DNA from: Candidatus Poribacteria bacterium
GTDB lineage: Bacteria > Poribacteria > WGA-4E > GCA-2687025
Reading direction: 5' to 3'
Length of the DNA stretch: 64,000 nt
NCBI GenBank assembly: GCA_963665845.2
Contig: OY762492.1
Location: 2,880,001-2,944,000 of the forward strand
Shown here piece by piece: positions 38,420 to 63,579 of the stretch. The translations under genes were made by a program, and so were the position numbers. The notes below the pieces were generated by a model, which made no database searches, had not been told where the DNA came from, and was given only the letters and a program-made list of their open reading frames with translations. The first letter of the stretch is position 1. Each line of letters starts with the position of its first letter.

Positions 38420-38640
38420 ACTCTGGATTCCCGCTTACGCGGGATGACGATCCGGTTTGCAACGGTTTTTTCCGATCCATAAAGGTTTGTTCGTTCAAAG
38501 TCCCAACTTTATGCATGAGGTCAGGCCTAAGATTCCCGCTTACGCGGGAATGCATGTCCTCGCGGAAACGGGGGACGATTTGGCTGGCGAGGCATTTTCT
38601 CCATGAATAAAGGTTTGTTCGTTCAAAGTCCCAACTTTGG
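38420..38640. repeat. Two tandem MITE halves with dRS3 palindromes, one bearing the 22-nt insert
   Basis: ATAAAGGTTTGTTCGTTCAAAGTCCCAACTTT occurs twice. Confidence 0.8.
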
Positions 38641-38752
38641 ATGCGATCGGGGATGACTGGTTGCGCCGCTTGCCAGAATCGGATTGTTGCGTTCCGCTCC
38701 GCGTTTCGTTAAACTGCGCTCAAGTTGGATGCGGCATTCGGAGAAAGGATAT

Positions 38753-39709
38753 ATGTTTAGAGTGTCTGTGTGGGATAAGGGTCTCTCGGAACGGTATCTG
38801 CGGTTTGTGACGCAGCTCGGCGCCGACGCCATCGACTTTGGAGGCGGCAACTCGTTTCCGGGCGCGCGAGAGCAGGGGTATCCGTCCCCCGAAGGCGTCC
38901 AAGAATATCAGCAGAAAATCGCCGCCTTCGGCATGGAGATCAACCGCGTCACGCTGCCCGACATCTCCGCCGGTTTCATGCGCGGCGCCGAAGGCAGCGA
39001 ACGCGAGATTGAAAACTCGGTGAAGGCGATACAGGTTTTCGGCGAGGCGGGAATCAGTATCGCGCGTCAGCGTTTCTGGGGCGATGTGTTCCGCGAGCAG
39101 ATGTTCCGCTACAGGTCGGTTCACCGCGGCGGCTATCTGTCGCGCGGGGAGACGCGCATTCCGCCCCATCAGGCGCAGGAGACGCCCGATAAAGAAGCGC
39201 TGGATTACTGGTGGAGCCGATTCTGCGCCGTGTATGAACAGCTGACCCCCGCCGCGGAAAAATACGGCGTCAAGCTGGCGATCCATCCGTCCGACACCCC
39301 GCTGCCGGACACGCCGCTGGGAGGACTCGGTTACCACCGCGTCATTGACGCTTTTCCGAGCAAGAATGTCGGATACCTCTACTGTTGCGGGACGCGGGCG
39401 GAGGCGGGCGGTTCCTCGCTGGTGCTGGACGAAATCAACAACTACGGGCGGAAAGGGCGCATCTTCACCGTACACATGCGCAATGTGCGCGGGAGCCTCG
39501 CCACCGCCGGCGCGTTTGAAGAGACGCTGCTGGACGACGGCGACATGAACGTGTTCAAAATCTTGAAGGAGCTTCAAAAGGTCGGGTTCAGCGGATGCAT
39601 CAACGCCGACCATGTGCCGCAACTGGAGGGCGACTACGAGAATTTGAGCTTCGGGCTGGCGTACTCCATCGGCTATCTGAAGGCGATGTTTGCGGCGCTG
39701 GCGGCTTAA
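38753..39709 (+). CDS. uxuA: Mannonate dehydratase-like protein
   Basis: LTPAAEKYGVKLAIHPSD, CCGT, HMRNVRG, FEETLLDDGDMNV, DHVP, YSIGYLKAM. Confidence 0.85.
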   Translation: MFRVSVWDKGLSERYLRFVTQLGADAIDFGGGNSFPGAREQGYPSPEGVQEYQQKIAAFGMEINRVTLPDISAGFMRGAEGSEREIENSVKAIQVFGEAGISIARQRFWGDVFREQMFRYRSVHRGGYLSRGETRIPPHQAQETPDKEALDYWWSRFCAVYEQLTPAAEKYGVKLAIHPSDTPLPDTPLGGLGYHRVIDAFPSKNVGYLYCCGTRAEAGGSSLVLDEINNYGRKGRIFTVHMRNVRGSLATAGAFEETLLDDGDMNVFKILKELQKVGFSGCINADHVPQLEGDYENLSFGLAYSIGYLKAMFAALAA

Positions 39710-39740
39710 GGTGTTATGCCTCGCATTCTGACGACGAGAT

Positions 39741-40035
39741 GGGCGCGCCTCTGGATTCCCCCTTGAAAAGGGGCGCGCCTCTGGATTCCCCCCTTGAAAA
39801 GGGGCGCGCCTCTGGATTCCCCCCTTGAAAAGGGGGGCTAGGGGGGTTTAAGGCGCGGAAAGCGCCTGCGGCGCCGAAGATTCCCGCTTACGCGGGAATG
39901 ACGAAATGGGGGGCGCCTCTGGATTCCCGCTTGCGCGGGAATGCATGCCCTCGCGGAAGCGGGGGACGGGGAGAGGAGTCGGAATGCATGCCCTCGCGAG
40001 CATGTCCTCGTGAAAACGGGGAAGCGGGGGACGAT
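39741..40035. repeat. Mosaic repeat cluster between convergent genes
   Basis: GGGCGCGCCTCTGGATTCCCCCTTGAAAA x3, two dRS3 palindromes, single and nested 22-nt inserts. Confidence 0.85.
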
Positions 40036-40039
40036 GATG

Positions 40040-41056
40040 TCAGTCGTATTCGTTCAAATAGGCGCATGTCAGCTGGATGATCTGCTCAACGTCGTTCAGG
40101 TTGACGACTTCAGTTGAGCTGTGCATATACCGGCAAGGGACGCTGACGACGCTGACCGGCATTCCGCCGCGCTGCGTGGAGGCGGCGTCCGCGTCGGTGT
40201 GCGTTCTCCCCGTTTCCGTTTCAACCTGCCATGGGATGTCATGTTTTTCGGCGGTGGCGCGGAGCCGTTCGAAGATGCGCTGGCTTGTTCGGACGCCGCG
40301 AATGAGAACAGGTCCGCCGCCCAGTTTCACTTCTCCGCGCTTCGCAGCGGAGGTGGACGGATAGTCGGTCGCCCAGGTCACATCGAACGCGATCGCTTCG
40401 ACAGGTTCTCCATCGTATGCGGCTTGCCCTGCGCCGAGTCCGCCCGTCTCTTCTTGAACGGAGGAGACGGCTAAGACGGAGGCGCGCGGCGGTCCGTTTT
40501 CGCTGAGTCGGCGGATCGTTTCCGCGGCGATGTAGCACCCGATGCGGTTGTCGAAATTGCGCGCGGCGGCGAGTTCGTTCGGCAGGTCAAGCCAGCCTTC
40601 GCCGACCACGATCGGGTCTCCCAGCTCCACATGGTTCATCGCTTCGTCGCGGTCTTTGGCGCCGATGTCGATGAAAATTTCCTCGATGGCGGGATCGGGC
40701 TTTCCGCCGGCGAAGGTTCCGACGATGCCGCGGACAATGCCGTTTCGCCCGACAATCTGAACCCGCTGCGATTGCAGCAGATGTCTCGGCAAACCGCCGA
40801 CCGTTGCCGCTTTCAAAAAGCCGTTTCCTTCGATATGTTTCACGATCATGCCGATTTCGTCCATGTGTCCGATCAGCATAACCGCGTCGTTCAGCTCTCC
40901 GCGCAGGGAGGCGGTCAAGGCGCCGTGCGTGTGTTGCCGGACGCTGTCCGCATGCGGTTCGACATACTCGCGCCAGACCTGCTGCGCGTTCTCTTCGTAG
41001 CCGGAGATGCCGGGTTCCGCCATGAGACGTTTTAAAAATTGTAAAGATTCAGACAT
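40040..41056 (-). CDS. M42 family metallopeptidase
   Basis: GISGYE, GHMDEIG, FDNRIG, VQEETG, DVT, TDAD, RYMHS. Confidence 0.92.
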   Translation of the reverse strand: MSESLQFLKRLMAEPGISGYEENAQQVWREYVEPHADSVRQHTHGALTASLRGELNDAVMLIGHMDEIGMIVKHIEGNGFLKAATVGGLPRHLLQSQRVQIVGRNGIVRGIVGTFAGGKPDPAIEEIFIDIGAKDRDEAMNHVELGDPIVVGEGWLDLPNELAAARNFDNRIGCYIAAETIRRLSENGPPRASVLAVSSVQEETGGLGAGQAAYDGEPVEAIAFDVTWATDYPSTSAAKRGEVKLGGGPVLIRGVRTSQRIFERLRATAEKHDIPWQVETETGRTHTDADAASTQRGGMPVSVVSVPCRYMHSSTEVVNLNDVEQIIQLTCAYLNEYD

Positions 41057-41087
41057 ATTGTTCTTTCTAAAAATGGACGGCGCCGTT

Positions 41088-42161
41088 TCACATTCTCTGC
41101 AGAATCGCGTCCGTCATCTCTTGCGTTCCGCAGGTTTTCATTCCTTTTTGGGCGATGTCGGCGGTGCGGTAACCGTCTTCCAGCGCCTGATCAACCGCGT
41201 CTTCGATGGCGCGCGCCTCATCGCGCAGACTGAAGGAGCGCCTGAGCATCATCGCGGCGGAGAGTATCATGGCGATCGGGTTCGCCTTGTCCTGACCGGC
41301 GATGTCCGGCGCCGTTCCATGCACCGGTTCATAAAGGGCGGCGCGCCCAGAGCCGACGCTGGCGGACGGCAGCATACCCAAGGAGCCGGCGAGCGCGCCC
41401 GCCTCGTCCGAAAGTATGTCGCCGAAAATGTTGCCTGTCACAAGCACATCAAACCGCCTCGGTTGCGAGATAAGGGCAAGCGCGGCGGCGTCGATCAGCA
41501 GATGATCCAGTTTCACGCCGGGATATTCGTCGGCAAGCTGCGCCGTCGTTTCGCGCCATAGCCGAGACGTTTCCAGCATATTCGCTTTGTCGATGGAGGT
41601 GAGGCGTCCGCTGCGCTCTTTTGCGAGTTCAAATGCCGCCCTTGCGACCCTCTCGATTTCCGCTTTGGTGTAGATCATCGTGTTGTATCCGCGCGTTTCT
41701 CCGTTCTCGGTGGAGATGCCGCGCGGCTCACCGTAGTAAAGTCCGCCGGTGAGTTCGCGGACGATGAGCATATCGATGCCGCCGCCGATGAGGCGGTTTT
41801 TAACAGGCAGTATGGGGGCGAGCGTTTTTCGTCCGCGCACGGGGCGCAGGTTGACGAACAGGTCCATCTCTTTTCGGAGTTGGGCGAGGGCGCGTTCGGG
41901 GCGTTTTTCAGGGGAGGCGTTGTCCCATTTGGGTCCGCCGGCGGCTCCGAAGAGTATGATTTCGGCGTCAAGGCAAAGATCAAGCGTTTCGTCCGGGAGA
42001 GGTACTCCGACCGCGTCGATGGCGCAGCCGCCTAGGAGGGCGCATTCGTATTGGAACTTGAGACGGCTCCGTTTCTGGACGGCGTCTAAGACCTGGACGG
42101 CGGCTCGCATGACCTCTTCGCCGATGCCGTCGCCTGGAATGAGAACGATGCGCATATCCAT
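41088..42161 (-). CDS. leuB: 3-isopropylmalate dehydrogenase
   Basis: PGDGIG, GGPKW, VRELTGGLYYG, DKANML, NIFGDILSDE, EPVHGTAPDIAG. Confidence 0.96.
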   Translation of the reverse strand: MDMRIVLIPGDGIGEEVMRAAVQVLDAVQKRSRLKFQYECALLGGCAIDAVGVPLPDETLDLCLDAEIILFGAAGGPKWDNASPEKRPERALAQLRKEMDLFVNLRPVRGRKTLAPILPVKNRLIGGGIDMLIVRELTGGLYYGEPRGISTENGETRGYNTMIYTKAEIERVARAAFELAKERSGRLTSIDKANMLETSRLWRETTAQLADEYPGVKLDHLLIDAAALALISQPRRFDVLVTGNIFGDILSDEAGALAGSLGMLPSASVGSGRAALYEPVHGTAPDIAGQDKANPIAMILSAAMMLRRSFSLRDEARAIEDAVDQALEDGYRTADIAQKGMKTCGTQEMTDAILQRM

Positions 42162-42232
42162 AAAGGTCTCCCGTTTTGACAACGCCGATACGATACCGCC
42201 TTTTAACCAAAAAAGCAACGGCGCATGCGTCA

Positions 42233-42365
42233 GGGCAGTACGCCCATAGGGATATTCGCGGCGCCGCATCCGATTCCCCCCTTGAAAAGGGGGGCTAGGG
42301 GGGTTTTCCACGGGGCGGATGGCGCCTGGTATGGCTAAGATTCCCGCTTACGCGGGAATGACGAC
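42233..42365. repeat. CCCCCTTGAAAAGGGGG hairpin unit plus dRS3 palindrome
   Basis: Intact version of the unit interrupted by IS1595 at 47350 (GGCAGTACGC..GGATATT.GCGGCGCCGC.TCCGATTCCCCC). Confidence 0.8.
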
Positions 42366-51999: not shown

Positions 52000-52436
52000 T
52001 TGGGACAGCTGAACGGCCAAAGCCTTTATTGATGGAAAAAGGCGCCGCCAACCAGGTCGTTCCCCGCTTCCGCGAGGGCATGCATTCCCGCGCAAGCGGA
52101 AATCCAGAGTCGAACAGACAACGTCCGCGTTCATCCTAAGCGTTCAGCAGTACAATTCGTCATTCCCGCGCAAGCGGGAATCCAGAGGCGAACCCGAAAC
52201 CGCCCGCGTCCGGCCGCCGCAAGCGGCGGAAACCCCCCCAGCTCCCCTTTTCAAGGGGGGAGTCTCAGAAACCGCCCGCGCCGCGCCTCTTTCCGTCATT
52301 CCCGCGTCCGGCCGCCGCAAGCGGCGGAAACCCCCCAGCCCCCCTTTCAAGGGGGGAGTCCAGAAAGCCCCCGCGCCGCCTTCCCGTCATTCCCGCCCCC
52401 TCTCCTCGTCATTCCCGCGTAAGCGGGAATCTTAGG
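52000..52436. repeat. Mosaic repeat cluster: MITE arm, 22-nt insert, dRS3 copies, two hairpins
   Basis: Duplicated CGCGTCCGGCCGCCGCAAGCGGCGGAAACCCCCC...TTTCAAGGGGGGAGTC. Confidence 0.85.
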
Positions 52437-62989: not shown

Positions 62990-63579
62990 GCCTCGTCTCT
63001 TTGAGTTGAGACATTTGAACGACCAAAGCCTTTATCATGGGAAAAGGCGTTGCCAACCAGGTCGTCATTCCCGCGCAAGCGGGAATCTAGAGGCGCCGCA
63101 GAAACCGTCCGCGTTCACCTCAAGCGTCCGGCGGTCCAAAACGTCATTCCCGCGGAAGCGGGAATCTTAAGGCATCGCAGCCGCCGGGGCGTCTAAAACC
63201 CCCCCTGCCCCCCTTTTCAAGGGGGGAGTTCAGAAACCTGCGCCATCGGTCGTTCCCCGCTTCCGCGAGGACATGCATTCCCGCGCAAGCGGGAATCTAG
63301 AGGCGCCGCAGAAACCGTCCGCGTTCACCTCAAGCGTCCGGCGGTCCAAAACGTCATTCCCGCGGAAGCGGGAATCTTAAGGCATCGCAGCCGCCGGGGC
63401 GTCTAAAACTCCCCTTTTCAAGGGGGAGTTCAGAAACCTGCGCCGTCGGTCGTTCCCCGCTTCCGCGAGGACATGCATTCCGGGCGCGTCTAAAACCCCC
63501 AGCCCCCCTTTTCAAGGGCGGAGTCTAGAAACTCCGCGCCCTACCCGCCGGCATGCCCCAACTAAAGACGCAAGGTCAG
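62990..63579. repeat. Expanded MITE containing a ~210-bp tandem duplication, four dRS3 palindromes, three hairpins and two 22-nt inserts
   Basis: Left end AGTTGAGACATTTGAACG; right end ATGCCCCAACTAAAGACGCAAGGTCA. Confidence 0.85.

Follow-up and report, generated by a model that had tools for sequence, protein, structure and literature searches.

The intergenic repeat cluster at positions 39709-40044 of the window, the 64-kb stretch of Candidatus Poribacteria DNA analyzed here, raises the question of whether a 22-base hairpin that occupies the same point in several copies of a host repeat, and in one place lies inside itself, moves independently of that repeat, and by what means.

The inserts and the repeat that hosts them

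The host repeat is the CGTC REP, or NTS/SRM repeat, which has a CGTC-type tail and an ATTCCC-N8-GGGAAT palindrome and is present in 857 full copies in the genome. According to the available parts of the respective papers, CGTC repeats have no dedicated transposase (Di Nocera et al., PMC3733652) and NTS/SRM repeats are associated with Ssn GIY-YIG nucleases (Chenal et al., PMC11893778). All six inserts in the window were found where the first-pass annotation had placed them, each flanked by GAATG and ACG, and 27 sites reading G(G/A)AATGAC were empty. The features are:

38553..38574, + strand: 22-base element A, within the full host repeat 38531-38577
39709..40044, no strand: intergenic repeat cluster, entire; absent at the orthologous place in the sister species and bypassed by one contig (run X5) from another study
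39879..39903, - strand: host repeat, empty, in the same cluster as the elements at 39944 and 39987
39922..39968, - strand: CGTC/SRM host repeat of NTS type, interrupted by the element at the GAATG/ACG junction; motif as in the available part of PMC11893778
39944..39965, + strand: variant-A element of 22 bases within a full host repeat; folds into a 7-bp stem with a GGAA loop behind the CATG tail
39987..40030, + strand: outer element A, split in its loop (39987-39999 and 40022-40030), 44-base form in a half site
40000..40021, + strand: inner element, variant B (G plus CATG tail, GTGAAAAC loop region), in the corrected register
52061..52082, - strand: 22-base element A, within a full host repeat
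63063..63087, + strand: empty host repeat, unit 3 of a tandem array, with the upstream context of filled unit 2
63254..63275, - strand: 22-base element A, unit 2 of the tandem array, within a full host repeat
63454..63475, - strand: 22-base element A, unit 1 of the tandem array, in a half site

The unit had been described as a tail plus a hairpin, and the tail was indeed found to be conserved and the hairpin to covary. The inserts do not all split the usual palindrome, as had been stated, since at 39987 and 63454 the host is a half site (a 3' arm without an upstream hairpin). The copies at 63254 and 63454 belong to one tandem array, as proposed, and the third unit of this array (63063-63072) is empty. 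Nesting within 39987-40030 was confirmed, but the inner 22-mer, formerly placed at 40001-40022, fits best at 40000-40021 (G plus core), a shift of one base leftward, because this is the sole register that gives a family-type outer loop; the loop so restored is GAAA here and GGAA in other nested copies.

Contigs covering the nested 3' junction (40008-42277) were unique and without differences in three of four runs, from one study that is possibly the source. None of the contigs listed spanned the entire 44 bases with 31 letters on either side. Matches of 55 bases to the nested form, with two and four differences, were present in runs from two other studies and possibly represent a different locus. 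Several runs containing window DNA were labelled sponge metagenome. The cluster is flanked by two convergent genes (window 38684-39709 and 40040-41056), one encoding a mannonate-dehydratase-like protein and the other an aminopeptidase of the M42 type, and the ends of these genes nearly abut in the sister species. A third hairpin repeat (a C-run, a TTGAAAA loop region and a G-run), with about 270 copies in the genome, is interleaved with the SRMs and is found in the window at 39750-39850, 63200-63240 and 63400-63520; no DUF559 gene, a candidate partner of this repeat, was found genome-wide. An Rfam search of the 64-kb window gave no match.

The genome comprises 3.98 Mb in three contigs and is 90% complete. 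Allowing up to two substitutions, we found 244 cores in it, and none when the reversed sequence was used as a control. The invariant part is a core of 21 bases, with a CATG or CCTG tail followed by a stem with a GNAA loop. Folding, which did not separate RNA and DNA forms of the element, indicated that the stem is stabilized by a G-T pair on one strand only. The base beyond the core depends on the site, being either a G at the left or an A or G at the right; the ends differ by one or two purines and the net insert is 22 or 23 bases. Insertion without target duplication, as claimed earlier, holds for duplications of at least two bases, and copies ending in G are formally G-core-G with a one-base ambiguity.

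The element does not occupy one exact site, as had been thought, but is also found at other sites and outside repeats. With site classes assigned by the left flank, 240 of the 244 cores fell at four sites, leaving four unclassed. The host-tail site contained 158 cores, of variant A (GGAA loop) plus a few of variant B, and the host stem was split by three cores of B. Variant C (CCTG tail) contributed 49 cores, found immediately outside the host hairpin with their orientation reversed. The remaining 30 were nested in the loop of another copy: 28 were the sister variant B, which has a GAAA loop and a T-A closing pair and occupies the loop of A, and two were the same variant as their host. Nesting "once inside itself" is therefore correct for the window only; genome-wide, nesting is a class, mostly of one variant within another, and not a single event. 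The single nested copy that had been taken as a sign of independent mobility is weak evidence when considered alone, given that nested forms make up a class of 30 copies. Tail sites of the host repeat were filled in 188 cases and empty in 1343, and about one in eight copies of the genome's commonest repeat is filled.

The element is gained independently of the host repeat

It could be argued that filling happened a single time at each site in the distant past, after which the filled copies were multiplied and shuffled together with the host repeats, the element no longer being mobile by itself. The genealogy of the host modules makes this highly improbable. In a tree of 140 modules, constructed with the insert removed, the 40 filled modules needed 34 changes, compared to a mean of 35 after shuffling; this tree, which is based on short sequences, is mosaic and poorly resolved, with 23 of its 134 branches starred, and gains and precise losses count alike in it. 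Filled modules formed one group in 0% of 200 bootstrap trees, and the supported branches force at least 12 changes. On a quick tree the fill state was slightly clustered (26 of 500 shuffles). Markers on either side retained the genealogical signal that the fill state lacks: a control base 23 nt upstream was clustered (26 vs. 46 changes, 0 of 500 shuffles), as was one 4 nt downstream (27 vs. 36 changes, 0 of 500), and a loop base 11 nt away was weakly so (38 vs. 44 changes, 13-17 of 500). Because the filled copies are scattered over the host genealogy, a single origin followed by passive amplification is rejected for variant A, and the 22-mer was not confined to one monophyletic subfamily of the repeat.

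Among 34 pairs of modules sharing a rare tail of at least 35 bases, 25 consisted of one filled and one empty module and nine were both filled; two of the pairs listed were neighboring tandem units. In the tandem array of the window one unit is filled and the next is empty despite the same upstream context. Together, the tree and the module pairs bear out that this is a minimal mobile unit, gained independently of the repeat it occupies. The nine doubly filled pairs would nevertheless fit an ancient filling, as would the existence of only four main sites, the 63254/63454 pair within one tandem array, and variant C, which always has the same flank and almost no empty counterpart.

Variant A was found with all three host loop types without association (p = 0.61) and was unevenly distributed across the more distant upstream flank classes (p = 1e-6). 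Half sites were filled in 50 of 319 cases and full hairpins in 94 of 888, and 171 of 171 junctions had a GCGG(G)AATG-like flank. By a stricter definition, about 336 GAATGAC words lack a repeat-type flank and none of these was filled, for which selection in genes may be responsible. As half sites are filled as often as full hairpins and all junctions bear the flank, copying guided by flank identity appears more probable than recognition of a target.

The CATG pattern was searched for in 41 related genomes, with 150 exact matches in this genome, 34 in the sister species and none in the others. Both species use the main site as well as one of the minor ones, which again would suit an old filling. 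In the sister species variant B is mostly found in GNAA loops, both of the host and of itself, and self-nesting accounts for 10 of the 41 contexts listed, up to three deep. Our ortholog comparison covered 1.66 of the 3.6 Mb of the sister species and did not reveal a clean, precise filled/empty pair for variant A. A usable ortholog was lacking for 186 of the 206 clusters; at the corresponding place in the sister species, 13 others were repeat-free and seven had some repeat. At two orthologous sites a C module with approximately 10 flanking bases had replaced other sequence, and we infer that the replacement was into this genome. One of these patches, near C1:1830303 (region C1:1829300-1832800), is in frame in a gene for a 1106-aa TPR/FG-GAP/ASPIC protein, which is eight residues longer than its ortholog in the sister species.

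Relatives in other phyla and in transposase genes

A scan of GTDB genomes with an exact degenerate pattern gave at least 123 stretches. The matches listed included Proteobacteria, Chloroflexota, Planctomycetota, Bacteroidota, Actinomycetota and Verrucomicrobia, as well as several candidate phyla and one Promethearchaeota record. Five rich carriers had 15-71 exact copies each, and variant A was letter-identical in one Binatia genome. Among the 127 distinct contexts listed, the base to the left was a purine in 123. The closing pair was C-G in 88 of them, T-A in 35 and another pair in four; the basal pair was C-G in 79, T-A in 32, T-G in nine and unpaired in seven. The tail at the 5' foot of the hairpin was CATG in 23 and CCTG in 104 contexts, as selected by the pattern. 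In three contexts from other taxa the core is enclosed by related hairpins that have different tails, and the family is therefore wider than the pattern searched for. Viral contigs contained 23 element stretches, some deeply nested. Two viral contigs carry left and right arms stacked about five-fold, apparently in frame near a gene start, which may be the result of deep nesting or of slippage. A description of this cross-phylum family was not found in the literature searched, namely the main texts of openly accessible papers.

The targets were several positions in SRM-like repeats, other palindromes and transposase genes identified by Pfam (IS family names are our reading of the Pfam matches), dozens of them unrelated. 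The net insert in transposase genes is 23 bases. In Dehalococcoidia one or two positions per transposase family were struck repeatedly, with few sites per gene, and this return to the same few positions disfavors a loose target recognition. Several transposase families of three Dehalococcoidia genomes are disrupted by the 23-base form at recurring codons, on both strands and often twice per gene; such breakage could represent a parasite of a parasite or be of benefit to the host.

The same codon was struck in transposase copies of 78% identity that differ by 20 silent and nine replacement codons, in a comparison that excludes the IS5 rows and one indel-affected set at site 1. For a second pair of transposase genes, from two genomes, 23 of 37 differences were at third positions. 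Since a frameshifting insert cannot predate the silent divergence, these are repeated arrivals at the same codon, which further counts against sites filled once and long ago.

Alternatively, a putative enzyme that recognizes the tail plus hairpin as donor would paste the element de novo each time into purine-rich single-stranded junctions, i.e., hairpin loops and feet. Recurrence would then reflect target preference, and self-nesting would follow from the element's loop being itself a target. We regard this as a possibility of some weight, if an unlikely one. It agrees with the conservation of tail and stem across phyla with compensatory changes, as for a protein-recognized substrate, with the G-T wobble favoring one strand, with the many unrelated targets and with the three-deep nesting in the sister species. 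The target consensus has no fixed tetramer, being C-rich and then purine-rich before a G, and non-repeat sites lay in predicted loops in 43 of 72 cases compared to 43-48% of matched controls (p 0.003-0.03), although these sites are not independent. On the other hand, a motif this loose should strike far more than four sites per genome, filling of the main site does not require the host hairpin, and the search for a gene encoding such an enzyme, described below, gave no candidate.

The search for a mover and a model for spread

The first-pass annotation read the element as an HUH substrate (IS200/IS605, RAYT), i.e., as the non-autonomous substrate of a Y1 transposase (IS200/IS605 TnpA or RAYT) for which the four-base tail serves as guide. 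Four bases 5' of the hairpin foot and the lack of target duplication do resemble IS200/IS605 ends and REP/REPIN with RAYT, as described in the available parts of PMC6006769 and PMC3116915; unlike these, the element is a single hairpin and not a doublet. The Y1_Tnp profile (PF01797) was found neither in this genome (90% complete) nor in the sister species (91%), and was missing from four of the five element-rich carriers; none of 11 further carriers had it, compared to 10 of 89 non-carriers. There is no fixed target tetramer, two different tails share overlapping targets, and filled copies did not differ between the leading and lagging strands (81 vs. 95, p = 0.20; GC skew weak). An HUH transposase is consequently very improbable indeed as the mover.

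No other mover was identified. Among the 125 neighboring ORFs scanned, of 205 listed, neither a nuclease nor a recombinase recurred; the only recurring genes were those of transposases, which are targets. No inverted cassette with a gap of 272-332 bases was found in metagenomes, and among 71 repeat-flanked ORFs in this genome, inspected by eye, the only nuclease-like gene was ssn. The RVT_1 reverse transcriptase was absent from three of five carriers, including this genome, and present in two; all five had MutS. In one Dehalococcoidia genome, inverted pairs with a spacing of about 850 bases looked like cassettes but proved to be a transposase gene with an insertion at two places. The genes between direct pairs in viral contigs are ordinary ones. 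Two of the other GIY-YIG matches in this genome, with frames of 365 and 640 codons, are not repeat-flanked cassettes.

The ssn-type GIY-YIG gene of this genome (102 aa, C1:2298872-2299180) is bracketed by SRM arrays in inverted orientation, and two SRMs immediately upstream of it are filled. The sister species has one intact copy and a second split into two matches. It had been suggested that GIY-YIG genes might be flanked by the 22-mer; the ssn genes were found to be flanked by SRMs and not by the element. All seven element-rich carriers (this genome and six others) had ssn, some copies being broken, compared to one weak match among 39 other relatives. Within one order ssn was present in seven of 11 carriers (four without a match) and in 31 of 89 non-carriers (p = 0.10). 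Among 80 ssn loci, 60 had SRMs, and loose element-like matches numbered five vs. three in the control. Viral contigs contained no ssn. The link between the element and Ssn is thus weak.

Ssn may still matter through its cleavage. The available part of PMC11893778 describes that SsnA of Neisseria cleaves single-stranded DNA at a distance of a few bases on the 5' side of the repeat, and that this cleavage requires three bases adjoining the palindrome. Insertion of variant A alters two of these three bases, as read directly from the sequence, and filled sites are predicted to resist Ssn cutting; from this a homing-like drive would result. In the sister species, where copies sit mostly in loops, Ssn would not be blocked.

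The explanation that we put forward, at about even odds of being correct, is that the element is a hairpin without a gene (a 21-base core with one or two terminal purines) that spreads by homology-guided copying and has no dedicated enzyme. A filled copy would act as the template from which it is patched into an empty look-alike site. Single-stranded donor DNA would anneal by about 4-15 bases on each side with the 22-base hairpin looped out, and in this genome nicks or fragments made by Ssn beside intact SRM repeats would supply the starts. Flanking mismatches would be corrected to the recipient by MutS, the loop being too large for MutS, and replication would fix the insert. New sites would arise rarely, at purine-rich junctions similar to the flanks of copies already present. 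Mismatch repair in bacteria copes with loops of up to about 4 nt (available part of PMC2504288), for which reason a looped-out hairpin would survive.

In support of homology-guided copying, patching together with the flanks is visible for variant C. Counting against it, large-loop repair also exists in E. coli, according to a source available in part, and one IS110-type gene pair from two genomes has only about four identical bases beside the site. Copying also leaves the first arrival at a new site unexplained, and de novo insertion in some form is needed there.

The closest known systems are the SDRs of Nostoc. SDR1-8 of Nostoc and relatives, units of 21-27 nt, were reportedly described by Elhai et al. 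(2008, in Genome Res 18:1484), who are also said to have noted hairpins with compensatory changes and nesting in own copies. The SDRs are reportedly confined to one cyanobacterial group, and movement through RNA is said to have been proposed. The available parts of later papers cite the Nostoc SDRs (PMC4390886, PMC3116915, PMC2884548) and report that SDR5 is inserted precisely at one point of the HIP1 repeat (PMC4390886). The element resembles the SDRs in size, covarying hairpin, exact insertion in another repeat and self-nesting; it shares exact ends, a length of 22 nt (23 in transposase genes) and the coexistence of filled and empty sites. These features, all of structure and insertion behavior, place it among the very small mobile elements exemplified by the Nostoc SDRs. 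It differs in range, spanning many phyla among the matches listed, in having a stem-loop that mirrors the SRM repeat, and in breaking transposase genes. As regards the RNA route proposed for the SDRs, RVT_1 was found in two of the five carriers and not in the other three, this genome among them.

With respect to CGTC REP/NTS-SRM repeats, the stem-loops of the element copy the two loop types of the host, whereas its tail is CATG or CCTG and not CGTC, and it sits inside SRMs instead of flanking ssn. The available parts of the SRM literature (PMC3733652, PMC11893778) do not describe inserts of this type. A different precedent is the homing of introns and inteins. There, as in the element, the insert splits the recognition site of a nuclease; introns and inteins are copied into empty alleles by gene conversion, and the element would be copied likewise. 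The element differs in its size of 22 bases, its short flank homology and the lack of a nuclease of its own, and its drive is a prediction.

On a more speculative level, and rather doubtfully, the family may be viewed as cross-phylum "homing hairpins" that dispense with a transposase, combining patching by short homology, escape from mismatch repair as loop-outs, immunity of the filled sites to Ssn, passage between unrelated symbionts (this genome and a Binatia genome have letter-identical copies) and, in some hosts, the systematic knocking out of resident transposase genes by a parasite of parasites.

The mobility of units this small has been suspected, without a mechanism, since the Nostoc SDRs. 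The present family is abundant, young and cross-phylum, and because Ssn, the nuclease of the host repeat, is biochemically tractable, oligonucleotide experiments could address both copying vs. cut-and-paste and the predicted resistance of filled sites to Ssn. If the element is merely shuffled with REPs, it is a curiosity. If homing without an enzyme of its own is true, it would set a lower limit for selfish DNA and would provide an additional route to the inactivation of insertion sequences.
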